64,000 nucleotides of DNA from Candidatus Omnitrophota bacterium (lineage in GTDB: Bacteria; Omnitrophota; Omnitrophia; Omnitrophales; Aquincolibacteriaceae): the NCBI GenBank assembly GCA_043803685.1, contig JAZDJU010000123.1, positions 14,673 through 78,672 on the forward strand, read 5' to 3'. A program made the position numbers and the translations under genes. The notes beneath the pieces are model-generated. The model saw only the letters and a list, made by a program, of their open reading frames with translations, was not told the origin of the DNA and searched no databases. Numbering within the stretch: the first letter of the stretch is position 1; each line of letters starts with the position of its first letter. Below, in pieces: positions 45,501-60,847 of this stretch.

Positions 45501-48500
45501 TGAAGACTCTTCAAATACCACCCAGAGGGACGCGCATAACCAATGTAGTGGCTCAATTCCCCATTTAAGTGGTCCACGAATCCCTGAAAGAATTGTTTTC
45601 CGGTCAGATTTAGCAACGCAAGATCGTTGATCGGAACAACACGACCCAATCCTGGGATTTCAAATAAGAAAAGGCCTTTGATCTCATCCCCGAGTTCTGC
45701 CAAACTCATCTTTGAAAGCTTTTCAGCCTGGGCCTCGTCTTTTTCAGAGATACTCCATATTCGCGGGTCCTGCAGGGGCTCACCTAAGCTGTCCTTACTG
45801 GCCCGCTCAAAAACCACGTCGAAACTCTCGCCACGGCTAACTATTTCCCCACCACCTCGCACTTCAGAACGGCTTGCCCCCATGGCAACCTCCGAAGTGA
45901 CGGAACGGGAAGGAATGAGATAGGCTTCTGCCTTATCGGCCGAATCAAGATAGTAGGGCTCCTCGCCCCAGGTTCCCCCGAGCTTTTTCTTCGCAAAGGG
46001 CACCTTCCGCCCCCCCAGTTTTCCGATCACCACTTGTTCGATAAAATCATCGTTGGAAACATATTTCCCATGCCCCGGTATTCCAAGATAAAGGTCTTTC
46101 GCAGAGATCTTCTGCTGAACATACCCCGCGTAATTGATCGTCTGCTCCCCGATCCAGAACATCAGCGCCTGACTGCGCTCATACGCGGCATGGATCTCCA
46201 GATTCTGGATCACGAGACTCCCGTCCTCGTCCAGATAGAGCCACGCCGCCGCCATCGTCTCGCCCGTCTTGTCATCCACTACTTCCATCACACTCATCCC
46301 CTCATCCACCAACCGCTCCACCATCGCGTGCGGGAATTGCCCCGACCCCATTCCGAGGCAGCAAGTGACCTTATCCCCGATGAATAAGTCCTGACCCGGC
46401 TGGCGGCCATAAAGACGAAATTGAAAATACGTGCGCATCGCCAGGATCTTCTGGTTCTCACGATCCAGGAGCCTCAGCTTGAGCGTCACAAGCTTTTCAT
46501 AAAAATGCGTAGCCGCTTCAAGGGCTTTTCGGTCTTGAGGCCCTTGAAGTTTTTGGATCATATTTCGAACCGCGCTTAAAAGCGTCCCGGGATTTTCATC
46601 AGCTCCCAGAAGTTTTACGTTCGTCAGGATCTTCACCGCATCGTTTTTCTTGGGACCTTCCTGACTCACCTGAAACTCGACTTTGCCTTCCTTCTCCGCA
46701 ACCTTCAATCCTGCTTTTCCAAGGATCCCGACCCAACCCGCGGACGCGTTGTTTGCCGCCGCGTAAGTTTTTCCCGCGTCTTCCAATACCTGATCCACAT
46801 CCGCATCCGGACTCCACGCCCGGTCCTGCCCCTGCCCGGAATAAAGCAACTCTCGCGGCTCGACTTTGGAGTTCTTGCCAAGCCAGGCGTCCATATCGTC
46901 CCCGTTTTGCTTCCCCAGGTCCCGGACACGCTTATTGTGCAACGCCAATGGCCGTCCAATCGCGTCCGTCTGGTCCGTGTTTTCAATAAAATCCATGAAC
47001 CGTCCCCCAAAAAAAGAGGTCAGTGTGGCGCGCATCAGACCGCCTCGCTCCTCGGCTCCTTGTTCCCCAGATTCTATCGTCTTCAGCCCTTTCACAAGCA
47101 GATGCGCCCGGTTCCAGTCCAGAAGAGCATGCACCTGTTCCGGCAATCCGTTCCCGCTGATTTCGATCCCAAGATCTTGGGCCAGAAACAAGACGAGTTG
47201 GCGTTTCAAGTTTTTCGCAAGCGGAGTGGGTGGCAGGGCTTTCATTCCCGCGAACTGCAACTCTTCTTCCAGCGCTCGTTCGCGGCCCATGGCTCCGAAG
47301 ATCGAAGCGACGTTCATCAACTCCAAGAGTCCGGTCACGTCTGGGGAGTACTTTTGACCACTTCGATCCTTCAGGCGTTCCTGATAATTCAGAAGGGCCT
47401 TCGCCAACCGTGGATTCTCCAAGACCCCCTGTTTGTCGGTGATCCATTTCCGGAGCATGTTCGCGCTAAAGATCTTCTGACTACGGATAAGCCCTTCCAA
47501 ATTCTTCATGGCTCCCGGCACCAGCACTTCCACTGCCACAGTCATGGAAAGCATCCGTGATATCTCGCCTTCCACAAGCCTTCGATTTAAGGATAACTCG
47601 GAATTTCTCTCCGCGAGCACAACCCCGAGAGAGTCCCTTCCCTGGTCCAGGGCATCAAGCCAGGGTTTATCCTGACCGAATAGAATTTCACCCAATGCGC
47701 GATTATCAATCGCATAGGTTAGGTGATATTTCCTGACCCACTGCCGCGATCGTTGCAATGCATCCTCCAGATCCCCCTCCGGCATGGATTGCTTCACAAA
47801 GGACAATAAACCGGAACTTTCAGCGACCAGAAGCTTTCCGGCCGCATCTTCTAATCCATTCTCCCTAAGCGTTTGAAACCACTTGTTCGCCATCAAAACT
47901 GACGCCGCGTCCTTCTCCATCAATCCGGACGATACGGCCGCGATTACAAGCTCACTGGCCTGGCTTTCAAACCCGTTTTTTTTCAGGGTCGCTTGAAAAC
48001 ATTCGTCCACCCTGGCGATCGACGCCTCACCCTTCTCCATCAATCCGAACCTTACGGCCTCGACCACAAGCGGACCTGCCCAGTACTCCAACCCATTCTT
48101 CTTGAGCGTTTGAAACCATTCGTCGACCTTCGCGATCGACGCAACGTTCTTCTCCAGCAACCCGGACTTTACGGCCTCGACCACAAGCTCACCGGACAGT
48201 TTCCCCAATCCCTTCTCCATGAGCACCTTAAACCATTCATCAACTTTGCCAATCGACGCCACGCCGCGTCCCATCACCCCGGACTTTACAGCTTCGATCG
48301 CAAGGTGACCGGCTAAGTCAGCACGCCCCATCGTTATGTGCATTTGAAACCATTGGTCCAATTCGGCGAGCGATGCCTTGCTTTCCTCCATCAATCCGGA
48401 CTTGACGGCCTCGAGCAAAAGCAGACCGGCCACATCCCACCTCTGCGCATCCTTGAGCAACTGGAGACATTCGTTCAGCCGGGTGATCGCTACGCTCTCC

Positions 48501-51500
48501 TCCATCAACCCGGATTTTACGGCCGCAATCACAAGCAGACCGGCAAAGTCCACCCACCTTGCCTCTTTTAGCGCGTAAAACCATTCGTCCACTTTGGCGA
48601 TCGAAGCCGCGTTCTTCTCCACCAGTCCGGACCTTAGGAACGCAATCATAAGCTCACCGGCCGAATACCTTCTCGCACTCTTTATTAACACGTAAAAATG
48701 TTTGTCCAACCAAGTGATCGCTGCGCTCTTCTCCATCAACCCGGCCTCAGTGGCCGCGAGCACAAGCTGACCGGCCCATTCTTCCAACCTCACTCTCATT
48801 AGCGCTTGAACCCATTCGTTCACCTTGGCGATCGACACGGGGTTCGTCTCAATAAACCCGGCCTTTACGATCCCGGTCACAAAGTCCCCCGAAAAATACG
48901 ACCGAGGCTCAGCAACGAGCACGCGGAACAACTCATCCACCTTAGCGATCGACGCCGAATTCTTCTTCATCAATCCGGACTTGATTGCCTCGAGCATCAC
49001 CTGCCCGGCCTGTCCCGCTTTGTTGTCGTCAGTAAGCAATCGTTCAATCAAGGTCATGACCTGTTCCCTTTTCATGATCAGTTGCTTGGCTTCCGTGCGA
49101 ACAGCGTCAGGGAACAACGCCACCAGTTGCTTCCCGTCCTCCACATCCGGCAAAGAATCTCCATCAGCTCGCATTTCAGAACGTTGATCTTCGGACCTGG
49201 TTGAAGAGTCAGGACTCGAGCCCACTTCCGGGGGGCGGGGTTCTTTGCCGCGGGGCGGAACAGCGGCCTTCCCAAACAGCGATTTCCACACCCCGATTCT
49301 CACACCAACAAGAAAGAGCCCTAAGGCTAAGACCACGCCTCCTAAAGTCATCCATGACGATGCCGGAACGATCTCCGCGGGCTTTGGCTCTGAAACATCC
49401 TCGGACGCCACTTCTGCTACGATCTCTTCTTCGATTATCCCTTCGCCCTCATTCTCATCAACAATCGCCATGTCCTCACTGGAGTCTCTCCAACTCGTTG
49501 AAATGGCCTTATAGGTTTCTTCTAAATTTCCCAAAGCCTTACCCGTGTACTTCGGGACCCCTATGTAATGGCTAGCATAAAGCGTCGAAAGATCCTTGTT
49601 ATTTGTATTCTTAGCATCCTTGTCAGGATCATACACAAAGTCAGAAAGAGTTTTATTGGGAGGCACACCTTGTAATAGCTTCACCATCGCCACGAACTGA
49701 AACAATGAAAAAGCTTTGGAGGAATGACCGGAACGCATGAGTAAATAAACCAGATTTCTCTGCAAGGTAGGCTTGTTCTGCGGTTTTTTGTAAAAGGCCT
49801 TAAGATCCGGGAGAAGCTCCATCAACTCTTCGGATGAAGAAAACCCGAAGCACCCCGCCACAAAAGCCAGCTCTTTTTGGAGAGTCGCATGATCAGGATC
49901 ACCCGGCTGAACCTCACGCGTTAAATAATTCAGCAGGAAATTCGCCATCGTTCGATAGTTGACCTGACCAAACCCCAATCCACCGACGAACGCCGGTTTT
50001 CCTTTTGAATTGCGCTGGATCATGGATCGAAATTCGCTTTCGATCATAAAAAGATGCATCAAAATATTATGCAAAGCATCCTGATCTTTCGCGGAGAGAT
50101 CGTCTCGAACATCACGGATCATCCTGACTAACTCCTCTGAAACCACTTCCTTGATTTTTTCCGGCCCAAGCTCCCCAAGCTCCTTTTCGATCTCTTTTGC
50201 CTGCTCTACGATCATCCGGGAAGAAACGCGTTTGCGGGTCAAAGATTCCTTTACCTGCTCCGGGCGCTGCCCCGAAGACACTATCAGCGAATCACTCTGT
50301 TCGGTGGTCGCGGACATCGCAAGCGACGTTACAGAATCGTACAAATTCCACGCCCCGGACAAACACAACGTTACAAGCGCGACCCTCACCCATTGCCGCC
50401 ATATCCCTAAATTTGGCTGATCATGCCCCATTTGACGCATTTCAGAACGACGCGCTGCCTCTTCGGTTTCTGAACCGTCTTGAACTTCGGAACGTAGCAT
50501 CTCGGAATAGGTTACGAATGTGCCGTTCAATTCTTCCTTCAACGTCGCTAGCGCTGTTTTTTCCTGCGATTCGCGATACCGCTTGAGAAGCATTTTTGCC
50601 TTTTCGGGGTTAAAGGTCACGACCACGCTATGGGTTCCCCAATCGACATCCACGATCTCCTCAAGTTCCGCTTTCTTTTTGACATTCACGGCTTTGATCG
50701 CATCACGGAACCATTCATACTCTAAAAAGCTCATCACATCCTGCGCGTTCAAGAGAGAATCAAAGGGCGAATCTGTCTCCCCATTGAGCAATTTCAGTTT
50801 TTCATTTTCGATCCGTGTGAGCATGATCATAGGCGGCGTCTGATAGGTAACACCGCGCCCCGCCAGAGTATCCTTAAGCGCCAGTGCCATGACGTCCAGC
50901 TCCGTGGTCGAAACCGGTGGCCCGCGATTTGCCAGAGCCTCTTTCGTAAAAGCGATCCATATCTTGTCCGGAGCCTCACGGAAAGGAATGATCCCCTGCT
51001 CCCAAGCCTCCCTGGTAGACTCTGTGGGTTTGATCCCAAAAGCTTCCCGGGTGAGCTTTCCCAAACTTTTGATCACCTGATCGCCTCCGCTATCGCCGAC
51101 CAGGCTTTTGAGTCGATGAAACGCCCGGGTTCTGGGCCTCCGCCCCCCCTCATCCTCCCCGTAACTCGGCACGCTCACCTCTTCGATCACTTCGATCTCC
51201 TTTTCCGGCGGCATTCCGCTGCGGCCCGCCGTGAGCGCTGTTCGCCCTGCGGTTTCATTCAATACTTCTGTGAGCGGATCCTGATCTCCCCAACTTTCGA
51301 TTTTGGGAGAATTTCTTCGTGCAAGGATTTTCTGAAACTTCTTTTCGATCTTTTCGGCAGTGACCGGTTGCTTAACATAGGTGTTGCGATTTTGGGAGAT
51401 CGCCAAAGACGGAAGCACAACAGCGCGGTTCCGCCCGGTGTCTTTGGCAAATGAAAGGGCGTCATTCGCAAGCCGCGACGCCCAGAACGCAAAAAGCTCC

Positions 51501-54500
51501 ACGCGGTCATGACGTATAAATTCCTTCTCTTGGGAAATACCTTGCGAATCCCGGACTTTCCGTTTCTCGATCCAATAGGAACGTCCTGCCTCCGCCCCCA
51601 ATTTCTCGCTCATCATGGCGATCAAATATTCCAGGGCATTGTCCGCCGAAACACTGCCGATCGAGATGCTGAAGAAACCTCGCGCCGTGGTTTCAAATTC
51701 GACAATTCCATACTCATTTCCCTCAAGACCCAACCTCCAGCCCAAATGCTTTAGGAACTCCGGAACTCTTTGTCCACCCAATCGTCGGCGATCGACAAGG
51801 ATATTGACGCCATGCCCAAAGTTCATGGCAGCAAGCATCTGATCTTCGTTTTTAAGGTAATCGACTTGATGAGGCTCAAGATACCGGTTGATCCGGACAA
51901 CCAGATAGCGATCCCTGAAGGCTTGTGTAAGCTCATGCACAACACTATCGAGATTTCTTGGATCAAATCCCTTCCTCGCAAGAAACGTGATCTCATCTCC
52001 GCCGGCTCCTCGATAGATCTTTAGCGCATATTTTTCGAGGATCGTCTTCCCCTCGTGCTCTCCTCGCTCCCTGAACCACTCCTTCCAGAATTCAAGGAAT
52101 GGAGATCCCTTGGGCGGAAAACGAAGATCCAGCGACTTCGCTTCTCCGATCACCCCGACAAGGGGCTTTCCGGATACAAGGTTCAGGGCACCACCCTTGT
52201 CAATATCGCCAACAATACTGTGCAGCTTGGACAGCTCAGAGACGGGACACATCTTTAAATCATTGATGAAATCGGTCTGACTAGCAAACTGCGTTCCCAA
52301 TTGATCCAATTTGATTTCAGAAACTGAAGAAGCCTCTTCAGAACGCATTTCGGACCGACGTGCTGCCGATTCTTTTCCCGAGTCGTCTCGAACTTCCGAG
52401 CGACGTTTGGGATCGCCCTTCTTGACGGGGGATACTCTCTGATTTTCAAGGCCCGTGTACCCTTTCCGCGAAAAACCTATGGCCTCGCTCAAGCTCCGTA
52501 TCGCACGGCTCACAAAATTCGTCTCCGCTGAAGCTCTTCTCCTTTTTGTGGAAAGCTCAGTTCTTAACACAATAGCACCGGCGATGAGCGGCCCCACAAA
52601 GAACAACCACATAACCGAGAATCCCGTCTTGGTGGAAGGATCAGACGCTTCGACCTTCGCTGGCGCCGTAGCCGCTTCTTGCTGGGGAATTTTCCCTTTT
52701 ACAACTACCTTCTTCTGAGCTTTCAGCACAACCTTTTCCGTTGCTGGCGCTGGCTCGACTTGGGGTGACGAAGCTACCTCAGCCGGAGATTTTCCCTCTT
52801 CTCCTCTGCCACTCTCAGACACAACAGGTTTCCGAAGCTCTTCAACATCCCGCTCCGCTAAAAGCAATCGCCGCACCGGCGTCTCGTGCTTCGATCCGCG
52901 ATAGAGTTTATAAAAGTTGAACGGGGAATCACGAAATTGAGAGAATTTCGTTTCCCCCTCCGCAGATTTTCTTCTTCCGGATTCGAGGTCGATCCGAAGC
53001 CGGTCCATTTTGATTAAAACCATCATCAGCGAAATATCGTTATCAAGCATGAGGCGAGCCAGCGCCAGACGAAGCATTTCGGGGTCCGCTTTTTGAGAAA
53101 CACTAATGAGCTGATCAAGGGTAATATTCACAGAATCTCTAAGACACCGATCCACAAAGGCTTTTTCTGCCTCATGGATATTGTTAAGAAAATGATCTTT
53201 TTTGAAATCGTACTTCAGATAATGAAATAGCGTCTCTTTGAATGTCTCAACCTCCACTTGCCCGAACCCGAGCCCCACAATAACCTTACCGCTTTTGGTC
53301 CTTTGGACCACATTCTCGAATCCCGATTCGATCTGCATGATGTACATGGCCAGATTGTGCATGGCCTTCCGCTCATTCTCTGGAAGCTCCGCATAGACCT
53401 TGTCAATGATCCTCGACAGATCCGCCGAAACTCTTTTCATGGTCACTTCTTTTCCCTCGCGATCCAGCTGAGCTTCCCTCTTCTCGGCCTTTTCAAGAAC
53501 AGCGCCCCGATCAAGAACCTTCAGCAAAAAAGTCCTTACATCCTTAGGCAGAGACGCCATCATCTCGATTTTTACCGAGCCCTTCGTAGCAGCGCCCATC
53601 GCGCCTGCATTGGCCGCATCAATCGAAACAAGCGATGCCGAAACAAGCAGCATGCCCGCCGCGATGAGCGCCCGAACCTTCGCCCCCATCCGCACCTCGG
53701 AACGACCGGCTGTTTCCGCTACCGCAACGGATTCTTCAATGCGGGTTTCTGGACGTAATGCCTGCGGAGTTTGGTAGAGGCTCAGGGATTCTTTTGCAAC
53801 ATCCCGCCCAAAGGGATCGGGATCATTCAGCTGTTCGGAGCGAAAAACTCCGGATTGAATAATCGCCTCTATTACTTTCAACGGATTCAGGAACTTTGTA
53901 AATGCCTGTTGAGTGTTGACATCTTGCTCTACACGACCATCCGTAACACCCAAACCGTGTCCCACGAACCATTCAGTATTGTGGAAATACAACGCAGCAA
54001 GAAACGCACGCTCAAAACCATGCATTTCAGAAACAGTCGGAAGATACTTTGCTGATTCCGTCTTCAGTGCGGATCCCCATGTTTCTCCTTCTCGATCAAT
54101 CGAATCCGGTTTTACCAATCTCTCTCCATTCAACGCCTTTCTCCTTTGATCTTCCACAAACTGAATCATATGTTCCCAAAACGCAGCTGCCGCCTCCACA
54201 GCATATCCGGGATCGGTTAAACGCCATGCGACCTCGGCATCGGACATATTGCCGGCATTCTTCCATCCCGTCGCTCTTCGTATCCACGCATCACGCATTC
54301 GAAAAGGACCCGACGTCGAATTCAGACCCAGCGCCATTCCGAAAAATGCGGCTATCTTCGCTGGAAATCTTTGCCGTCCTGCCCAGCCAGACAGCTGCCA
54401 CTTGGGAAGCCAATCTGCTCGTTTGCCTGCAATGCTCATCGCTTCTCGAAGGGTATATTTTCTCTCGAAGGCGCTCGCCAGAATGAGGCTGTAAACGAGA

Positions 54501-57500
54501 AGTTCCTTGGGTATCCCGTGGGCCTTTGCGCTTTTCACGACAGAGCCCAGGATCTCAGGCGACAATTTCCTGATTTCATCCATCATCGGCCGAAACTTTC
54601 CATCGAACTTCCCTGTCTTTGCTTGACGGACATCCTCTAACATCCTTTCAAAATCTCCGAGACTGTAAAAAACTTCGCGAAAGCGCCTGTAAACAACGTA
54701 TTGATTTTCGATTTCATTGTTCGCTTTTTCCATTTCCTCCTTAACTTCCGGACGCGGAGAATATATTTTTTGGCACCTATGATAAAATTCCCATTTATTC
54801 AACCTTGGAATATCGATGTCGGGAAAATATTTCCTGGCCAACAGGGTCTCAGCCTCAGAAAGTTGAACGTTTTTTCCCATGATCCCGTCAATAATTCCAC
54901 TGACCTGCCCCTTGACTTTCTTCGCATCCTCTTCTTCGCCGGATTCCGTCATACTTAAAACAATCCGGAGCGCTTGATATATAATCGGATAAATCGAGTA
55001 CAACTCTTTCTCTTCATATCGCGTGTTGCCGCTCATATCCAGGCCCTTCACCATGTTCAATAATTCTTCCCTGACAGCCGCCAGTTGCGACTCTTTTTGA
55101 TCGTTCTTCTCCAACCCGTAAGACTCTTCTATTTCCTCGATCTTCTTTCTAGCTTCACGAATCGTCTTTTCCAATTTTCGAATGAGTTCGGAATCCCGCT
55201 GAGGATTGAAACCGTACAGGCCGTAGGCCATCGCCATTTCGCCATCGACCCCAAGAATATCTTTCATGTTGTATTGAAACTGATCCTCAACCCGCTTCGC
55301 AACAAACGCCATGCCAATTGAACCCGATACCGCTGCACACCCTGCGAATATTGCAGCGCGTTTCAAAAATATTCTCCTCGAAGAATCGAAAGGACCATTC
55401 GCGACTATTCCTTTTACGACAGCCTTAATCCACCCGCCAAAGGCCTTAGCCCTCGAGACATCGTCCGGCAAACGCACCTCCGAACGAGTCATGGGACGTT
55501 GAGCCGCTCCAACTTCCGGCGCCGCTTCACTTTTAATCATCTGCAGAGCGGCGGCATAGATAAAGCTCATATCGTCCTGTGGGAATCCATATTTTTCTAT
55601 GCTCCGCGGCATGTGTGGCCTGATAAAATCCTTCACATCCTTCCAACTGCCCCAGGCCGATTCGGAGCCCAGATATTCAAGCAAATAATAAAGGACCGGG
55701 TTGGTTTCTGCCGCCTGCCCCGTTCCCGTGATTGCCATGGGGGCATTCTGAGGATTGGCCATGATAAGGGTATCCACATTATCGATCGAGCGGCAATGAC
55801 TGACAAGACGCATGCCTCCCACAACGCCTGGATAGTCCGTATTCCCTTTTTCACCCGCATGCCCTCGGCTGATCGTGATCGGAAAAGGGCTTTTCTTGAT
55901 ATTCTCAAGGTCCGAAAATAAATAAATTTCCACCCTCCGGCCTGTTGCCGGGAACTTTTTCACCAGCACTCCTCTCGCCCCCAGCTTTTTCAATGTCGCC
56001 GGATATTCCCCTGTTCCAGAAAGGTCCTCATAGCCGGAGAAATTCATGTAAAAACTGTTCACTTTCTTGCCATCCATGAAAATGCCAGGGAACTGCTGAT
56101 AGTGTGCCGCTTCACCGTCCTTACTCGTTGACCAGTAAAGCCCGACCCTCAGGCTGCCGTCAGGCCCAAGCCAATCCCGTTGAGGCCCCCGCCAGACCGG
56201 ATTGAGTGGCGGCAAAACAACATCTCGAACGACATCTGCGATCCTCGGATCTAATCCCTTGAGCAGACCATAATCCACCATGAGTCTCACCAGCAATTTC
56301 AACTGTTTGCTATCTTTCAGGTACTGTTCGACCTGCCTGAAAAAGGCATTTTTAAAATCGGCGTTTTTAAAATCAGACACAGCCGTGACCACCTTAGCGA
56401 ACAAGGCCGGCTTCTTCAGAAAAGCCTGCACATTTTCTTGCAAAAACACCTGATCTGCGAGCTGGGCCGGACTGTAAGCCAAGCCGTTCAACTCGCCCTC
56501 CAGCTTGCCGAAGATCGTCAACACAAATAAATAATTAGCTAAAAAACTCCTTCCAAACCGTTCACGGCTGAATCGGAAGACATCGGCAGCACCGTACTTG
56601 CGTATCAGATCATTCCGAAAGGCAGCCTGCAAAAGAGGAAAGCTGTGACTTGTCACCTCCTGGCTGAGAGCTAAAATGGGATAGAGCGCCTCCGGACTAC
56701 TGCGCAACCGGCTTGCGTACTTCGCCAGATACGCTTCGCCTCTGTTGAGATCCCGTTCAACTTCCAAATTCAGCACACGCAATATAAAAGAATCGATTTC
56801 GTAAACGCCGCTTCTGAGAACATTCTCCCATTTTGCGACGCTATCTCCGGAAGACGCGCCCAGCCGCTGACTGGCGATCTCGAAAAACCGGTAACCCGAC
56901 ATTTTAAAGAAATTTTCTGTGATCGTTCTGGCTATGGATGGCCTCTCTATGGATGGACTCTCCTGTTCAACGCGGGATGAGAACCATGCCAACGTGTCAA
57001 GCGATGGATGTTCTGCCAATGCAGGAATGATGTCGTAAAGGATCAAATCTGTGTCGCCGGCTTTCTTGGCCGAATCGTGCCACTCCATTAATCGGTCCCT
57101 GGCAGATCCAGTCCCAAGATTCCTGAGCCCTTGAACGACAAAATGCATCACGGTGCTTGTCTCATAGGGATCTCGACTCCATTCCAACAACCGTTCTTCG
57201 GCTTTATGGGAACCAAGGTCCGCAAGTCCATAAGCGGCCAGCTTTCTCACGTCCGGGCGAGGATCACGGCTTAATTCCATCAACCGTATCTCTGCTTCCG
57301 GTGTTTTTGTCTTGCCCAGCATTCGGGCAAATTCGCCCAGGACTTCAGGAGAACTCTCGCTATGACTCCATTCTATAAGCCTGGCAACAGCCTTGGCTGT
57401 TCTTTGCTGGACCAACCCATCAATGAGAGCTTTTTTCATATCAGGCGTTAATTTTTCATCATAACTCATTGTTAAAAGCCTTGCTTCCGCAGTAGGGCTC

Positions 57501-60500
57501 ACGAATCCACCCAGTGCTCGGATCGGTAAGAGGAGCGCTGCGCCTCGCTTTTCCTGGGTCCATTGGATCAGCACCCGTTCCGCCTGAGCGGTTCCCGCTT
57601 TGGCAAGCGCAGAGGGTAATTCGTACATAAAGTTCGGATTCGTGATCTTTCTGCACATTTCCAGCAAGAGATCATGGGCAGCCGGATTCTTCCTGGCCAA
57701 TATTCCTATAGCTGGGGCAACAATGGAGTGAGGTATGTTTTGATAAGCAAAATTTCTCTCATCCCGGGCGCCTGTCATGACCTCTTCCACAATACTTGGA
57801 GGTATCACCTTGGCGTTCTCCAAAGCCTTCGAGAAAGCTTCCATGGTGGAGTAGTTTAAATTCCATTCTGTCTTTATGATCTCCCTCAGGTACAGAAGGA
57901 TCGCTTCCGTTGGATTCTCGGCTATGGCGTCGTAGATCGCGCGAAGAATTACTTCGTCAGGAACACTTGCGGCCAAGGCTTTCGCTTCCTCAAAATTGAC
58001 CCATCCGTGCCGGATCAAGATCTTGACAGCCTGAGCCCTGGTCCAGACAAAGTGGGACTCCCTGAACACCTTTTGAAGGAACACCTGCACCTCTGTCCCG
58101 GAGACGCTCTTCTCACGAAGGCGTTTGTTCAAGCTTTCAAAATAAACCTCGGCTTCTTTCCTGCTCAAACCTTCAAGACGATCGAGCTCAAATTCGTTCG
58201 GTCCCAATGAACCGCCCGTTTGGGCTAAGACTGCCCTGGCGGGAGCAAAAACTCCCATCAGGGTGCCCCCCACAATCGACGCGAGCGTAAGGCCTAGAAA
58301 GGTTCTCCTGTTCATCTCCATGGCCGGATGGGTGTCGGCGGACATACCGGCCAGATTTCCAGCCGAAGCCGGGAACGCCGCAGGATCTTTTTTGGTGGGG
58401 ACTTCCAAAACAGGCTCTTCGTCCCGCACTTCGGAGCGTTGGATCGGACTGGACATTTCAGCAGTGGGAGCGACCGGAGCAACAACAGGTACCGCTGTCG
58501 GCGGTGCCGTCACGGCCGCCGGTGATTCCATACCAGGCAACACAGGAGGTGTCATCACGCGAATGTTGGGATCCAGACTCTGAATGAGAGCGACAAAGGA
58601 CGGCTTTGATTGACTCGCGCGGTCGAGCAGAGATGAGACGCTTTGGGCATTGAGGTCTTTCCTGGAAATGAGCTGCTTGAGGCCGTCGGTAAAAATATCG
58701 AGCTGGAATTCAAAGGTCTTCCAGATGCGCTCGAATGAATCTTTCTTAAACTTCTCGAGTTCCTTGCGGACAACGTCGAGGATCTCTTCCTTGGTGCGTA
58801 ACGGGGTCAGACCCCCTGCAGCATTTAAGGGGTCTGACCCCATTTTTTGAAGAACTTCATCGATGTAAGGCAGGTACTTCCCGACATCGGCGATCCTTCC
58901 CTGCGCGGCGAATTCACGGACCACGTTGTCGCGCCAAACCTTCAGGGTCATGACCCTATCCTGGATCGGCAGAGCCTCAACCATTTTTCTTGCCGCATCG
59001 CGCATCAAAGCATCAAAATAGGTGGTCTTTAAGCCCTCTTTGAATGAGACATCGCCTTTCATGACCTTGGCATAGTTTTCCTGGCCCGCAAGCGAAGCGA
59101 TCTTCGGCGCCACTACGGCATAAGCGACGCCTTTTTCCTTGAGAAGACGTTCGAGGCCCTGGGTATGAAATCCTCCGGCGACAACCGCAACAGTTCGGGG
59201 TCCCGAGTTCGGAGTTCGGGAGGGTTCTTTGTTTATTAAGAGCATGATATTTTTGAAGAAGGCCTGGTCACGTTCGAGAGCCACCTTGTAGAATTCCAAC
59301 GCGGAGGCAAGGTCCCGCTTGAACTCAGGGTCTGCGATAAGACCCAGATAAGAGTCCGGCTCTTTCTGATAGCTCGCGAAATCCTCGTGGATGAGCTCGA
59401 GTGAGATCATTTCTTTCAGGAGAAAGAGCTTCCGGTATTTTTCCGCGATTTCCCGCTCGGCCGGCGTCTTGATGAGGCTCGATTCCACCTGGGAGAGAAA
59501 GCCCTGAAGCTCATCGCCCAGCCGACTGCCCTTGATCTCGGAAAGAAGCTCCGCATGCCCAAGCATCCTTTTGAGAGCCGGGGAAAGTTTTACGGCCTTG
59601 CCGCTCTCATCCCCCAGCTGAACCAGATATTGGAGCATTTGTCCGGGCGTGATCTGACCGGTCATAAAAGCCTGATAGCGGTTGTAAAAGTTCATTTCGG
59701 TCTTCACGCCGAGCCCGCGCAAATACTTCGCCTTGAATTCGTCGGCGATCTTGCGAACAAGAGACGCTAGAGCTCCCGACTTCCCCGACCCTTCATATCC
59801 GATCGATTCCAACAGCTTGGGAAGCTCTTGATATTTCGGGGTTGTCTTCAAAAGATCTTTGAACTTGGAGAGATAGATCAAAAGATCGAGAAGCGATGCG
59901 CGCTCGACGAGAAAATTCTCCCGTATCTCCTCAAATTCGTTCAGCGCGGGGGCATAGACCTTGGCACGTTCGCCGTCGAGCGTTTGCTTGAATGTGTTCC
60001 ATCGGGCAAGTAGTGAAGGCTTCTTTTCTTGCGCCCGCAGATACGCGAAGTAATTCTTTTCATAGAGCCCCCAGTCTTCCATGCCGCGATATTCTCCAGC
60101 CTTTTCCTCCAACACAGCGGCCATCTCGGGCCCGGTGAGCTCCGCCTTTTTTTCATAACCCGCCAGGATCTTTCGCTTCACGCTAGGTTCCGGGAATGTT
60201 CTGAGCAGAACGGGCTCGAGCCGCCCCTTGGCGCCTTCAAGCGCTGTGAGGCGGACGTCATAATTTGTACGGAGATGTCCGAGGATCTTTGCGATATTCT
60301 GCTGAGCATCGATCACCGCGTGGGCATCTTGAATGAGAATAACCAGCCGGTCTGGGCCGGCTGAAGACTGAAGACTGGAGACCGAAGACTGAAGACTCTT
60401 TTCACCATCATTTTGTTGAGACGTGTTTTGGCTTTCAAGTCTCTGGTCTGTAGTCTGCTGTCTGTGGTCTTTCAGCGGAAACGAAGTTTCCGTGATCGTT

Positions 60501-60847
60501 CCCATCTCCGACGGAATGGCAAACGTGTCGATCGAAAAAACAACCGGCGCTCTAACCTCGGCGGGCGCGGCGGCGGCAGGCGTAGTCCAGGAAACGCTCG
60601 TCACTGTGAATACGAACGCCATCCCAATACTTATCAATTTCCTCGAAACGGTCCCAATACAAATCGATCGAAGCGTAGCTGAGATTGGGGCCGCCCAAAC
60701 TACCATTTTGGAAAAGAAATGAAAAGTTTGGGCGGAAATTGGGGTGGTCCAAATTACCTTTTTGGAAAAAAAAGAAAAAATTTGGGCCACGGCAAGCGCC
60801 GTGAGCTTTATGCCCCGCCCGTGAGTTTCTTCACTTTTTACATTCAT
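39524..60847 (-). CDS. Giant (7107 aa) modular protein with RSE[VMA]R-delimited enzyme modules
   Basis: Uninterrupted 21.3-kb ORF. Contains an N-terminal hydrophobic signal, a QDAH/ALEG/ERD/GGFH domain, HEAT repeats, SLT-like domains, GGDEF-like domains, 39-aa repeats, an M23 peptidase and seven GNAT-like repeats. Exact start uncertain. Confidence 0.93.
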   Translation of the reverse strand: MNVKSEETHGRGIKLTALAVAQIFSFFSKKVIWTTPISAQTFHFFSKMVVWAAPISATLRSICIGTVSRKLISIGMAFVFTVTSVSWTTPAAAAPAEVRAPVVFSIDTFAIPSEMGTITETSFPLKDHRQQTTDQRLESQNTSQQNDGEKSLQSSVSSLQSSAGPDRLVILIQDAHAVIDAQQNIAKILGHLRTNYDVRLTALEGAKGRLEPVLLRTFPEPSVKRKILAGYEKKAELTGPEMAAVLEEKAGEYRGMEDWGLYEKNYFAYLRAQEKKPSLLARWNTFKQTLDGERAKVYAPALNEFEEIRENFLVERASLLDLLIYLSKFKDLLKTTPKYQELPKLLESIGYEGSGKSGALASLVRKIADEFKAKYLRGLGVKTEMNFYNRYQAFMTGQITPGQMLQYLVQLGDESGKAVKLSPALKRMLGHAELLSEIKGSRLGDELQGFLSQVESSLIKTPAEREIAEKYRKLFLLKEMISLELIHEDFASYQKEPDSYLGLIADPEFKRDLASALEFYKVALERDQAFFKNIMLLINKEPSRTPNSGPRTVAVVAGGFHTQGLERLLKEKGVAYAVVAPKIASLAGQENYAKVMKGDVSFKEGLKTTYFDALMRDAARKMVEALPIQDRVMTLKVWRDNVVREFAAQGRIADVGKYLPYIDEVLQKMGSDPLNAAGGLTPLRTKEEILDVVRKELEKFKKDSFERIWKTFEFQLDIFTDGLKQLISRKDLNAQSVSSLLDRASQSKPSFVALIQSLDPNIRVMTPPVLPGMESPAAVTAPPTAVPVVAPVAPTAEMSSPIQRSEVRDEEPVLEVPTKKDPAAFPASAGNLAGMSADTHPAMEMNRRTFLGLTLASIVGGTLMGVFAPARAVLAQTGGSLGPNEFELDRLEGLSRKEAEVYFESLNKRLREKSVSGTEVQVFLQKVFRESHFVWTRAQAVKILIRHGWVNFEEAKALAASVPDEVILRAIYDAIAENPTEAILLYLREIIKTEWNLNYSTMEAFSKALENAKVIPPSIVEEVMTGARDERNFAYQNIPHSIVAPAIGILARKNPAAHDLLLEMCRKITNPNFMYELPSALAKAGTAQAERVLIQWTQEKRGAALLLPIRALGGFVSPTAEARLLTMSYDEKLTPDMKKALIDGLVQQRTAKAVARLIEWSHSESSPEVLGEFARMLGKTKTPEAEIRLMELSRDPRPDVRKLAAYGLADLGSHKAEERLLEWSRDPYETSTVMHFVVQGLRNLGTGSARDRLMEWHDSAKKAGDTDLILYDIIPALAEHPSLDTLAWFSSRVEQESPSIERPSIARTITENFFKMSGYRFFEIASQRLGASSGDSVAKWENVLRSGVYEIDSFILRVLNLEVERDLNRGEAYLAKYASRLRSSPEALYPILALSQEVTSHSFPLLQAAFRNDLIRKYGAADVFRFSRERFGRSFLANYLFVLTIFGKLEGELNGLAYSPAQLADQVFLQENVQAFLKKPALFAKVVTAVSDFKNADFKNAFFRQVEQYLKDSKQLKLLVRLMVDYGLLKGLDPRIADVVRDVVLPPLNPVWRGPQRDWLGPDGSLRVGLYWSTSKDGEAAHYQQFPGIFMDGKKVNSFYMNFSGYEDLSGTGEYPATLKKLGARGVLVKKFPATGRRVEIYLFSDLENIKKSPFPITISRGHAGEKGNTDYPGVVGGMRLVSHCRSIDNVDTLIMANPQNAPMAITGTGQAAETNPVLYYLLEYLGSESAWGSWKDVKDFIRPHMPRSIEKYGFPQDDMSFIYAAALQMIKSEAAPEVGAAQRPMTRSEVRLPDDVSRAKAFGGWIKAVVKGIVANGPFDSSRRIFLKRAAIFAGCAAVSGSIGMAFVAKRVEDQFQYNMKDILGVDGEMAMAYGLYGFNPQRDSELIRKLEKTIREARKKIEEIEESYGLEKNDQKESQLAAVREELLNMVKGLDMSGNTRYEEKELYSIYPIIYQALRIVLSMTESGEEEDAKKVKGQVSGIIDGIMGKNVQLSEAETLLARKYFPDIDIPRLNKWEFYHRCQKIYSPRPEVKEEMEKANNEIENQYVVYRRFREVFYSLGDFERMLEDVRQAKTGKFDGKFRPMMDEIRKLSPEILGSVVKSAKAHGIPKELLVYSLILASAFERKYTLREAMSIAGKRADWLPKWQLSGWAGRQRFPAKIAAFFGMALGLNSTSGPFRMRDAWIRRATGWKNAGNMSDAEVAWRLTDPGYAVEAAAAFWEHMIQFVEDQRRKALNGERLVKPDSIDREGETWGSALKTESAKYLPTVSEMHGFERAFLAALYFHNTEWFVGHGLGVTDGRVEQDVNTQQAFTKFLNPLKVIEAIIQSGVFRSEQLNDPDPFGRDVAKESLSLYQTPQALRPETRIEESVAVAETAGRSEVRMGAKVRALIAAGMLLVSASLVSIDAANAGAMGAATKGSVKIEMMASLPKDVRTFLLKVLDRGAVLEKAEKREAQLDREGKEVTMKRVSADLSRIIDKVYAELPENERKAMHNLAMYIMQIESGFENVVQRTKSGKVIVGLGFGQVEVETFKETLFHYLKYDFKKDHFLNNIHEAEKAFVDRCLRDSVNITLDQLISVSQKADPEMLRLALARLMLDNDISLMMVLIKMDRLRIDLESGRRKSAEGETKFSQFRDSPFNFYKLYRGSKHETPVRRLLLAERDVEELRKPVVSESGRGEEGKSPAEVASSPQVEPAPATEKVVLKAQKKVVVKGKIPQQEAATAPAKVEASDPSTKTGFSVMWLFFVGPLIAGAIVLRTELSTKRRRASAETNFVSRAIRSLSEAIGFSRKGYTGLENQRVSPVKKGDPKRRSEVRDDSGKESAARRSEMRSEEASSVSEIKLDQLGTQFASQTDFINDLKMCPVSELSKLHSIVGDIDKGGALNLVSGKPLVGVIGEAKSLDLRFPPKGSPFLEFWKEWFRERGEHEGKTILEKYALKIYRGAGGDEITFLARKGFDPRNLDSVVHELTQAFRDRYLVVRINRYLEPHQVDYLKNEDQMLAAMNFGHGVNILVDRRRLGGQRVPEFLKHLGWRLGLEGNEYGIVEFETTARGFFSISIGSVSADNALEYLIAMMSEKLGAEAGRSYWIEKRKVRDSQGISQEKEFIRHDRVELFAFWASRLANDALSFAKDTGRNRAVVLPSLAISQNRNTYVKQPVTAEKIEKKFQKILARRNSPKIESWGDQDPLTEVLNETAGRTALTAGRSGMPPEKEIEVIEEVSVPSYGEDEGGRRPRTRAFHRLKSLVGDSGGDQVIKSLGKLTREAFGIKPTESTREAWEQGIIPFREAPDKIWIAFTKEALANRGPPVSTTELDVMALALKDTLAGRGVTYQTPPMIMLTRIENEKLKLLNGETDSPFDSLLNAQDVMSFLEYEWFRDAIKAVNVKKKAELEEIVDVDWGTHSVVVTFNPEKAKMLLKRYRESQEKTALATLKEELNGTFVTYSEMLRSEVQDGSETEEAARRSEMRQMGHDQPNLGIWRQWVRVALVTLCLSGAWNLYDSVTSLAMSATTEQSDSLIVSSGQRPEQVKESLTRKRVSSRMIVEQAKEIEKELGELGPEKIKEVVSEELVRMIRDVRDDLSAKDQDALHNILMHLFMIESEFRSMIQRNSKGKPAFVGGLGFGQVNYRTMANFLLNYLTREVQPGDPDHATLQKELAFVAGCFGFSSSEELMELLPDLKAFYKKPQNKPTLQRNLVYLLMRSGHSSKAFSLFQFVAMVKLLQGVPPNKTLSDFVYDPDKDAKNTNNKDLSTLYASHYIGVPKYTGKALGNLEETYKAISTSWRDSSEDMAIVDENEGEGIIEEEIVAEVASEDVSEPKPAEIVPASSWMTLGGVVLALGLFLVGVRIGVWKSLFGKAAVPPRGKEPRPPEVGSSPDSSTRSEDQRSEMRADGDSLPDVEDGKQLVALFPDAVRTEAKQLIMKREQVMTLIERLLTDDNKAGQAGQVMLEAIKSGLMKKNSASIAKVDELFRVLVAEPRSYFSGDFVTGIVKAGFIETNPVSIAKVNEWVQALMRVRLEEWAGQLVLAATEAGLMEKSAAITWLDKHFYVLIKSARRYSAGELMIAFLRSGLVEKNAASIAKVDEWFYALKEARWVDFAGLLVIAAVKSGLMEESVAITRLNECLQLLKDAQRWDVAGLLLLEAVKSGLMEESKASLAELDQWFQMHITMGRADLAGHLAIEAVKSGVMGRGVASIGKVDEWFKVLMEKGLGKLSGELVVEAVKSGLLEKNVASIAKVDEWFQTLKKNGLEYWAGPLVVEAVRFGLMEKGEASIARVDECFQATLKKNGFESQASELVIAAVSSGLMEKDAASVLMANKWFQTLRENGLEDAAGKLLVAESSGLLSFVKQSMPEGDLEDALQRSRQWVRKYHLTYAIDNRALGEILFGQDKPWLDALDQGRDSLGVVLAERNSELSLNRRLVEGEISRMLSMTVAVEVLVPGAMKNLEGLIRSQKIFSANMLRKWITDKQGVLENPRLAKALLNYQERLKDRSGQKYSPDVTGLLELMNVASIFGAMGRERALEEELQFAGMKALPPTPLAKNLKRQLVLFLAQDLGIEISGNGLPEQVHALLDWNRAHLLVKGLKTIESGEQGAEERGGLMRATLTSFFGGRFMDFIENTDQTDAIGRPLALHNKRVRDLGKQNGDDMDAWLGKNSKVEPRELLYSGQGQDRAWSPDADVDQVLEDAGKTYAAANNASAGWVGILGKAGLKVAEKEGKVEFQVSQEGPKKNDAVKILTNVKLLGADENPGTLLSAVRNMIQKLQGPQDRKALEAATHFYEKLVTLKLRLLDRENQKILAMRTYFQFRLYGRQPGQDLFIGDKVTCCLGMGSGQFPHAMVERLVDEGMSVMEVVDDKTGETMAAAWLYLDEDGSLVIQNLEIHAAYERSQALMFWIGEQTINYAGYVQQKISAKDLYLGIPGHGKYVSNDDFIEQVVIGKLGGRKVPFAKKKLGGTWGEEPYYLDSADKAEAYLIPSRSVTSEVAMGASRSEVRGGGEIVSRGESFDVVFERASKDSLGEPLQDPRIWSISEKDEAQAEKLSKMSLAELGDEIKGLFLFEIPGLGRVVPINDLALLNLTGKQFFQGFVDHLNGELSHYIGYARPSGWYLKSLQSLPDWPAIQLELNSFSLALREVALRWSEKKSAEGRPVPSAKPSPKKAGVRIEIPEGVPAIAEHALVGEVFNANQLGLDAGLLAKRLYELSSRCYIQEGQKVPSVLEWLDILEDPESVFILRDLSGEIVGAAVRGSKFTLKGEEGVWLDRLMSVNDNVQGKGTFLLDVFLSQMSRLGVTIFRWNVSRFSENFYLNEEKGYLKPRQDAGMLERLKHDPSRSVTPEADVEIKLLADPLAPEFDDLRKFVGSKRSEVRYEIPEGVKAIAPDIGVGEVVDARDVLKADPTQLEPLAKFLDAFEVKHFSWEKTEDGVREWKETLGDSLQHVQLLVRAGDVVGVALSISPLPHVGGAQLVQIISVEDGMKGKGTYLLDVFLSEMFKRDLKKIEWHSLSDAKDFYDHFLNARSSKGILQFKLDGDSYKITLLKNPLDPEFDDLRKFVGTKRSEARFEIPEGFRVIVPDIGVGEVLDVKDFHGGDPGQEEIETLAKGLYEMEWELLRSLAQTWQTDIAFWKSKLGDPEQYIYVLRDRSGNLVGAVSGHFRPLEGNTIGLDRLMSFDDGVRGRGTLLLDAFLDRMYGGLETEFEWTASSGSEAFYDKFLADREARGILTFEKDGFKYKVRLFKSPLASEFDDLRDFVGYKRSEMRNFQPLRQNDVDPLGVEREAYLRHVRMGSLPDSLKPLSHSFEWPVDMSVATRHIANFFGTTNWPTTDRDEKHDGIDLQAEPGTSVYPVEDGFVVYVQRFDGRGDSAAASFADVWVYSPASDLLWQYVHLQRDSIPEHILKHTWFDSKSDLGVKKGERLGRVNAWHKKEAVRREYPLSPKVEKQYGRTYDHLHLEVHKVNGELYTGFGVRDLQAIDPLLLLRPLYPLPEFPRMVTTGRRPVRYVEGRSEVRLQLPKGVRVVAKAEGFGEVVNARDWLALAPDQLKPLEKELQDSRKDFFFFVNDHGDISAVAEVDLEGGKKASLGRLASLDDGIRGKGRMVLGAFFSEMFKKGIMGILWRDTSDGNFYESVLKPLQENGILTYTGTAGSVYNVTLLKDPLAPEFAPLYALRRHDTKFDLPSNVPVVAEYPLGKIVDAREWLKLAPDQLKPLASRLYYLDRPSFVLGKWEMDTGFWEAMLEDPDQAMWVFVDKNGEISGAAVPRGPVLKGKKEMWLDSLLSLDNGTLAPFMELFLNLMSKEGVERIGWYSSDDRELDILNARQEKGLLTFKHEGRSYEVNLLKNPLGESGGTQRSEARFEIPKEAVIAEYPGLGKTVDAKRFDPSKFEQLARRIREVETESYISKMDVEEFERSVRELEASLRDPSHYVYVLFDPSEDIAGVVRGYLEGETVRLARLMSSPDKVRGRGSFLLDTFLSEMSKKQKMLISWNFTGLSEGFYTDEEKGFLNPRQEMEVLKIISSARKGLEDPRPDIEIKLLANPLDSKFVGLRKFWGAQRSEAGLGPVAVGIPQSPATSTPERAEARSEAIISEHEILGTVVNARKSLEENPDQLKSLAARLFNLELSRGFSDDSNAEGRSRWEKTLQDQNTLVYVLMKPKPLGAIGGVVVANIALAKVTLLISARDKIRGNGTITFDAALSDMFMKDMKQISLSFPADARRFYVEFLEPRVEAGMLTVKPSIHELKNNPNIHKFAIDILDDPLDPKFEHLRDFFGSRRSEVRIDQNPLEVLTGTPAVQITQMTQDSNPDAVQALLLRQGQAGIDSEKTKFGDQETALMAQLQGYKDVAALTEFVSTGLTQLLVKLFEPYGMTDAIAAEISMKALIGGAEASPALMKSGDVRRSEVRKIDIKKTQGFTSFIDDLISKMPGSGVSMIVEQGPDSNLELDALRKMEKIPRLVVLYDKNNPVGRGWDDVSNVVMKIRISERKPANVLVRDVVKASESEPFMAFFTRELGVEPHGILSILADFKSKDNPELKKLVCAAVALINRIYAAASPMDQELMKVDPSMLISKLKEKGIDLLALSAKNGVLTMDMEMLTQEFAASRAVEKAA
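47790..49020 (-). repeat. About ten tandem 39-aa (about 117 bp) coding repeats in the giant protein
   Basis: Consensus AGxLVxEAVKSGLMEKxxASIAKVDEWFxxL; DNA core tccatcaatccggac recurs with about 117-bp period. Confidence 0.9.
58803..58841. repeat. REP-like palindrome pair GGGGTCAGACCCC / GGGGTCTGACCCC inside the giant gene
   Basis: Two inverted 13-mers at 58803-58815 and 58829-58841; read in frame as MGSDPLNAAGGLTP. Confidence 0.8.

Follow-up and report, generated by a model that had tools for sequence, protein, structure and literature searches.

The window, a stretch of 64,000 nucleotides from a Candidatus Omnitrophota contig (JAZDJU010000123.1, positions 14,673 to 78,672 of the forward strand; assembly GCA_043803685.1), carries on its minus strand a giant open reading frame (ORF) of 7,107 amino acids. 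It encodes an N-terminal signal, a head with the fold of the TIKI superfamily, a series of cargo modules and a conserved tail. The joints are marked by 15 copies of the pentapeptide RSE[V/M/A]R, and the variant motifs RAEAR and RPETR occur besides. Segments resembling export signals lie behind four of these joints. Module starts, hydrophobic segments and motifs were all read on the minus strand of the giant ORF; TM stands for transmembrane, KD for Kyte-Doolittle hydropathy, and Tat and Sec for the twin-arginine and general export routes.

39524..60847, minus strand: the giant ORF
58424..58438, minus strand: junction RSEVR, preceding module 1
58223..58315, minus strand: RR-type signal of module 1, MNRRTFLG..ARAVLA, with an AxA site; the RR lies 38 aa past the motif, and HEAT repeats follow
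55472..55486, minus strand: junction RSEVR, preceding module 2
55304..55384, minus strand: Tat-like signal or anchor of module 2, SSRRIFLK..MAF; the RR lies 31 aa past the motif, there is no AxA site, and KR comes next
53690..53704, minus strand: junction RSEVR, preceding module 3
53606..53689, minus strand: Sec-like signal of module 3, MGAKVR..DAANA, directly after the motif and clear by our hydrophobicity heuristic
52565..52624, minus strand: late TM helix of module 3, followed by basic residues
51989..52003, minus strand: GGDEI motif of module 4, a module with no Pfam match and no signal
50435..50449, minus strand: junction RSEMR, preceding module 5
50318..50401, minus strand: Sec-like signal of module 5, WRQWVR..SLA, with the weakest h-region of the four (mean KD 1.51)
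49298..49354, minus strand: late TM helix of module 5, followed by basic residues
40529..45871, minus strand: run of GNAT-like paralogous modules without signals, whose alignments mostly start and stop at the motif
42833..43564, minus strand: M23 peptidase module (Pfam E 2e-6) with HxxxD and HxH present and no signal

A first-pass annotation of this DNA had reported the four signal-like segments after RSExR, and all of them are there. Its twin-arginine signal in module 1 does have the RRTFL, the h-region and the AxA site, but it is not among the four TIGR01409 matches at E<=10 in the assembly of the window's genome (G000, 91% complete). With 17.5 bits, the Tat-like segment of module 2 is narrowly above the TIGR01409 cut-off of 16.7. 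In both modules the RR stands farther from the motif (38 and 31 aa) than is typical (median 7 aa, see below). The late TM helices that had been described for modules 3 and 5 were found again (52565-52624 and 49298-49354), as was the lack of a signal at the start of the GGDEI module and of the GNAT-like repeats. Modules 3 and 5 are paralogous (33% over 122 aa).

The same arrangement recurs far beyond these four modules. G000 has 157 motifs in 17 ORFs, vs 0.6 expected. We scored module starts with a hydrophobicity rule, an uncharged 13-mer of mean KD >=1.5 within the first 50 aa after the motif, and called Tat signals with the TIGR01409/PF10518 hidden Markov models (HMMs). The rule was positive in 36/147 G000 module starts vs 6.4% of random cargo positions (p 2e-12), in 49/468 starts from 51 giants of relatives vs 5.9% of random positions, and in 7/50 starts after the GARL motif of another family vs 4.2%. 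Across 96 genomes of the order, the Tat HMM gave 65 matches in frames of at least 1,370 aa, of which 58 were examined. Within 50 aa after R[S/A/P]ExR lay 36 of the 58, vs a background of 11.8%; a further 11 or so, judged by eye, come after variant or lineage-specific motifs. The RR comes a median of 7 aa behind the motif, with a Met in between in only 6/36. An AxA site was present in 27/58 (background 18%) and a lipobox in 4/58 (background 0.1%).

Signals also avoid cytoplasmic enzymes. The cargo of the Tat-HMM matches is mostly without a Pfam name, and among the cargo that has one (MdoG, GH2, TPR, HEAT) there was no cytoplasmic enzyme and no redox-cofactor family. In G000 the hydrophobicity rule was positive in 2/26 modules of cytoplasmic Pfam families, one of the two being a Rossmann glycine loop, vs 27/95 other modules (p 0.036); one module of 5,147 aa exceeded the size limit of the Pfam search and was left out. 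The first-pass annotation had held that the internal signals support a polyprotein independently of the motif count, and their clustering after the motif, their avoidance of cytoplasmic enzymes and their conservation within module families (below) bear this out.

Its further suggestion that the exported modules are active on the cell wall is reduced to a lead. The one clear wall enzyme, the M23 peptidase, has no signal. For modules 2, 3 and 5, an invariant E-S and G-x-x-Q hint at a lysozyme fold with a catalytic Glu, and ESM look-alikes include SLT (0.90, with only 132 shared features); no Pfam match backed an SLT/lysozyme-like identity, and a model of pLDDT 62 gave no match in the Foldseek search, made for module 3. 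A PDB sequence search with module 3 was negative too. A wall-lytic role of these three modules is accordingly only a lead.

Of the 29 modules led by a signal, 17 lack a further hydrophobic segment that could stop transfer; without an earlier cut, the downstream module would be dragged across the membrane. The giant could nonetheless act whole, as a megaprotein in which signal-anchors and stop-transfer helices thread one chain, with a hand-over from Sec to Tat as in the actinobacterial Rieske protein, and in which RSExR serves as a linker or binding tag. Modules 3 and 5, with a signal and a late TM helix each, suit such threading, and a topology survey reads Omnitrophota giants as membrane-anchored in the part of its text available to us (10.64898/2026.06.07.730766). 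There is precedent for an internal Tat signal that works in an uncut chain: in dual Sec-Tat membrane proteins (the actinobacterial Rieske protein, polyferredoxin) the RR stands behind Sec-inserted helices and is not exposed by cleavage (PMC5449189, PMC7317946). The earlier premise that signals work only near an N-terminus was thus too strong, and the RR signals here need not use Tat. They resemble those of dual Sec-Tat proteins in lying inside a longer chain; unlike them, they stand after a soluble domain and a junction motif. Against an uncut chain speak the missing stop-transfer segments and the enrichment of AxA and lipobox sites. An RR segment comes directly after the exported head, where the RR would lie outside, and a linker would not need a strict five-residue motif at 157 joints. 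We consider an uncut chain quite unlikely.

The presence or absence of a signal is largely constant within a module family. In 35 homologous module families (<70% identity), a signal was present in all members of 8, in none of 25 and in some members of 2; the signal state was thus concordant in 33/35, and shuffles gave 14.6 mixed families. Three families, A, B and C, were followed across the order, with signal types read by eye. In family A, 21/24 evaluable members have a signal or anchor, but just 7 an intact RR; in family B, 14/16 have a signal or anchor and 10 have the RR, which all 4 full matches of family C keep as well. Between homologous modules the type switches among Tat, Sec, lipoprotein and anchor, so the RR motifs, for which conservation had been proposed as a check, are not strictly conserved.

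For modules 1 and 2 no full-length homologue was found, only two weak partial matches in 251 genomes and none in 96 genomes, and proteins of similar length yielded no homologue either. Module 3 was more informative: 7/8 distinct homologues begin with a signal (the exception is L083), and the first residue is M, L or I in close homologues. A search of 1.84 billion representatives turned up five true relatives of module 3, each of them part of a giant and none stand-alone. One of the giants, P0001, is orthologous to that of the window (77% in the head); its head is followed directly by module 3, with Leu replacing Met. P0001 is without modules 1, 2, 5, 6 and M23, each missing as a whole unit, and cassettes are thus gained and lost at the motif. 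Left out of the analysis were P0006 (a repeat-like match without the motif), the partial matches L191, L209-L211 and L216-L223, and the stand-alone molybdoenzymes L145 and L146.

The two ends of the giant are conserved, and are laid out as follows:

60566..60643, minus strand: Sec-like N-terminal signal of the head, also present on the complete heads of other giants
59012..60355, minus strand: head with the TIKI-superfamily fold; H176, E204, R526 and H561 invariant, D174 near-invariant
39527..40141, minus strand: tail module, ending in a helix and AA-COOH

Heads were found in 115/151 genomes sampled from the phylum, and the ESM Atlas clusters nearest to the head domain are of Omnitrophota. In G000 they go with the motif: 13/16 motif-bearing ORFs of at least 1,400 aa have a head, the three others being cut at the 5' contig end, vs 0/12 motif-free long ORFs. 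Across 73 head sequences a His, a Glu, an Arg and a second His are invariant, and an Asp is present in at least 90%. The Glu lies 28 residues after the His as in RRSP (available text of PMC6254334), a match of sequence spacing. The AF2 model of the head had a pLDDT of 93, and its five best VIA structural matches all belong to the TIKI superfamily: EreC (Z 9.6, rmsd 3.8, 152 aligned), 2qgm (8.8), ChaN (8.8), BcR135 (8.6) and HopBA1 (8.6). Foldseek and Pfam matches were weak and fell in the same clan; a PDB sequence search with the head gave no match. The head is thus predicted to have a TIKI-superfamily fold with a set of two His, two acids and an Arg. Since esterases and a haem binder also belong to the TIKI superfamily, the fold is no proof of proteolysis. 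A predicted complex between the head and a 32-aa RSEVR peptide scored 0.01, which speaks neither for nor against.

Two short motif-free ORFs in G000 consist of a TIKI head, one at C114:46201-48417 (739 aa, with a signal and an AA ending) and the other at C115:6558-8459 (634 aa, maybe cut by the contig end). Both are candidates for a trans-acting enzyme. Low-complexity in-frame inserts occur in or near TIKI heads, in the window at about 60365-60460 and in G000 contigs C10, C34, C47, C57, C59, C80 and C98. These inserts (QTTDQR..LQSSVSSLQS type) stand at loop positions and resemble inverted-repeat DNA elements within coding sequence.

At the other end, the C-terminus is [S/A]A in 14/14 complete G000 giants vs 35/1,529 frames of at least 300 aa (2.3%). 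An amphipathic helix precedes this [S/A]A-COOH in the window (39527-39580), in the 14 complete giants and also in L013, L014, L040, L048 and L077. The conserved helix is a possible secretion handle or degron.

The motif differs between lineages. RSExR occurs in four families, AxSLG in genome G076 (20 vs 0.64 expected) and GARL in genome G035 (46 vs 0.78). Giant by giant, L035-L038 (G076) have AxSLG, L051-L054 (G035) GARL[A/S], and L056-L057 (G012) possibly STSG; a small sample of giants from f11, f14, f16, f19, f20 and f26 showed no clear junction motif. The four G076 giants have AxSLG only and no RSExR, and their heads fall in separate old clades next to RSExR heads. Head trees were made with FastTree and then with IQ-TREE on a 29-row subset. 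An approximately unbiased (AU) test rejected a single clade for three of the AxSLG-genome heads, with a p-value (9e-8) that is optimistic because the subset was picked after the FastTree result. On these trees the junction motif follows the genome, not the head paralogue. One trans-acting reader fits such a pattern better than a head that cuts its own chain, and if the head were an RSExR endopeptidase, its phylogeny would speak against a cleavage site that is specific to each head. A genome-wide motif could alternatively stem from concerted change through recombination.

The Tat machinery itself is patchily distributed. Export by the producer's own Tat, one of the routes first proposed, is unlikely in the 91%-complete G000, where neither TatC nor TatA was found over cut-off; TatC is present in just 3/19 congeners and in 57/96 genomes of the order. 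G000 has only two over-cut-off Tat-HMM matches, both in giants. Internal Tat matches number 53 in 126 Mb (0.42/Mb) of the 57 TatC-positive genomes vs 12 in 75 Mb (0.16/Mb) of the 39 TatC-negative ones (binomial p 8e-4; per-genome Mann-Whitney U test p 0.06; kin are not independent). Family C was found only in TatC-positive genomes (11/11). In family A, six TatC-negative members have a damaged pair (KR, RK, RH, WR, RG, RG) with the h-region kept. This link with TatC points to the producer's own translocases.

Within one genus, L169 (G102) and L182 (G144) have homologous lipoprotein-type signals, the lipobox-like Cys being kept in both; the RR is intact in the TatC-positive genome and has become RG in the TatC-negative one (84% complete). 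L145 (G068 C67), a molybdoenzyme that stands alone, has a perfect Tat signal, yet no TatC was found in its genome (86% complete), which warns that assembly gaps are among the TatC-negative calls.

We lean, if modestly, towards a giant that is cut at RSExR in the cytoplasm of the producer and whose pieces are then sorted separately, the RR signals here probably by way of Sec. The giant gene is a string of protein-sized cassettes joined by RSExR. After a cut at RSExR, every cassette would begin with a new N-terminus, and the cassette's own Sec, Tat or lipoprotein signal would then send it out; signal-free cassettes would stay in the cytoplasm. The motif may be read by a single genome-wide trans-acting protease, one TIKI paralogue or another protease, because all giants of a genome share the motif regardless of head lineage. 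In TatC-less species the RR signals would be holdovers, which Sec may use, which may serve as anchors, or which may decay. The two RR cassettes of the window's giant look like mobile insertions that would leave by Sec or be anchors.

Several points weigh against cleavage in the producer. The cut at RSExR is a prediction, as is each step that would follow it, and the protease is a candidate. Signal calls came from a hydrophobicity heuristic and HMMs, not SignalP. The head has a Sec-like signal of its own, and under co-translational export the rest of the chain would follow unless it were cut quickly. M23 enzymes act on the cell wall, and a signal-free M23 module does not fit a tidy division into wall enzymes that are exported and enzymes that stay in the cytoplasm. 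The per-genome difference in Tat density between TatC-positive and TatC-negative genomes is weak; intact internal RR persists in 10/39 TatC-negative genomes, and in families A and B the RR tracks TatC poorly, being intact in TatC-negative G120, G126, G136, G006, G130 and G046. Copies of TIM and enolase in giants are divergent extras, normal stand-alone genes being present as well, and fit effectors equally well. Finally, the motif has a codon bias (Ser as TCN in 154/156, the first Arg as CGY in 134/156), weaker in relatives, to which DNA-level copying contributes.

Taken further, the codon bias would make the motif a scar left by recombination as cassettes were shuffled. The signals would then be defunct remnants of captured genes, or else starts of internally initiated proteins. 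The gain and loss of cassettes at the motif and the presence of RR where Tat is missing fit such relics. Against them, third codon positions of the motif vary freely while its residues stay fixed, which together with the bias points to a joint that was copied and also selected as a peptide. At 30-45% identity across families, signals are moreover kept or type-switched; start codons show no conservation, and the true relatives of module 3 are confined to giants. We regard this explanation as quite unlikely too. The motif as a pure DNA site was ruled out by the free third positions. Internal translation starts were ruled out too: ATG at +1..+6 after 524 motifs was at background, Met follows the motif in 6/36 Tat-type starts and lies within it in 5/36, and the Met of module 3 is Leu or Ile in homologues. 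The joint codon table gave, by eye, no excess of GGAG coupling. Both relics and an uncut chain fit worse than cleavage in the producer's cytoplasm or delivery to a host.

In the last case the whole chain would leave the producer, enter the cytoplasm of a host or prey cell and be cut there by a co-delivered protease, and host Sec and Tat would take the modules to the host envelope. RR signals that persist in TatC-less producers, and over-cut-off Tat matches that G000 has only in giants, are what such delivery would lead one to expect. The cargo enzymes are redundant and divergent, cassettes turn over fast, and the giants share a tail ending and an N-terminal signal; the head combines an export signal with the TIKI constellation of RRSP, a MARTX effector protease. 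On the other side, the density of internal Tat signals is 2.6x higher in TatC-positive producers, to which family C is restricted. Polytopic membrane modules (e.g. Rce1-like) would have difficulty crossing Sec whole, and no delivery machine was identified. Delivery of this kind strikes us as unlikely. A fuller version is equally doubtful: the giants would be effector polyproteins for prokaryotic hosts, with one TIKI-type protease and a lineage-specific five-residue code, and the host's Sec, Tat and lipoprotein pathways would sort the pieces into metabolism-rewiring enzymes and modules attacking the host wall from within.

Polyproteins of the flavivirus type offer a close parallel to cleavage in the producer: they have one ORF and short conserved junctions, and their products are sorted by internal signals and signal-peptidase sites. 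Unlike these, the giants are cellular, number about 17 genes per genome and carry unrelated, fast-exchanged cargo, and their motif is genome-wide, whereas each viral polyprotein has one embedded protease. Among bacteria, the cytochrome b-c1 precursor FbcH of Bradyrhizobium is split at an internal signal peptide; it differs in yielding two fixed subunits, without a junction motif or cassette exchange. We know of no cellular system of the present kind. If the cleavage reading holds, a bacterial lineage produces well over 100 of its ordinary proteins per genome as polyproteins, in the manner of viruses, topology predictions that treat the giants as single membrane proteins are wrong, and there is a new site-specific protease to find.

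MARTX toxins (available text of PMC6254334) share with the giants variable effector-like cassettes between conserved ends, and RRSP shares with the head the TIKI fold, acid-x-His, Glu (+28), Arg and His. The cassettes here differ in bearing their own Sec, Tat or lipoprotein signals, and a eukaryotic target is not part of the picture. Fifteen segments covering the ORF gave no RTX/MARTX repeat or cysteine protease domain family in Pfam at E<=0.05.

The giant of the window resembles published Omnitrophota giants, as far as the texts available to us describe them (10.1101/2023.11.21.568195; 10.64898/2026.06.07.730766), in its single ORF, N-terminal signal, TM helices, and enzyme and cell-wall domains. 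In the available text of West-Roberts et al. (10.1101/2023.11.21.568195) cleavage of such giants is proposed with the points unknown, and C39/S8 peptidases are named; in that of 10.64898/2026.06.07.730766, signal-peptide calls are suppressed on internal chunks. The words TIKI, TraB, linker and polyprotein are absent from the main texts of both. A literature search that barely covered subscription papers yielded neither the motif, nor internal signals in giants, nor anything relevant on bacterial polyproteins with such signals. For the question whether Omnitrophota giants function as one chain or as fragments, the signals behind the motif give exact predicted cut sites, N-termini and destinations. 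Added here are an order-wide distance test, family concordance, the TatC comparison and the finding that the motif follows the genome.

Two more junction features of the giant were mapped:

52343..52402, minus strand: double junction RSEVR..RSEMR
49169..49183, minus strand: junction RSEMR

The GNAT-like run (40529-45871) comprises 7-8 paralogous units, most of them duplicated motif to motif, with the M23 peptidase inserted among them. The neighbours of the giant ORF are housekeeping genes, among them a sodium symporter, a citrate transporter, pyruvate:ferredoxin oxidoreductase (PFOR) and anaerobic ribonucleotide reductase (RNR).

Other G000 giants carry different cargo. A single giant on C10 (L147) joins TIM-, PGM-, PGI- and enolase-like modules. 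An initial impression from BLAST, which returned no stand-alone homologue, that giants hold the sole glycolytic genes was overturned by Pfam searches for enolase and TIM; a stand-alone PGK is present, and a weaker PGI-like gene was found in 4/5 genomes tested. The giant on C12 (L162) has a SecA-like module after RSEVR.

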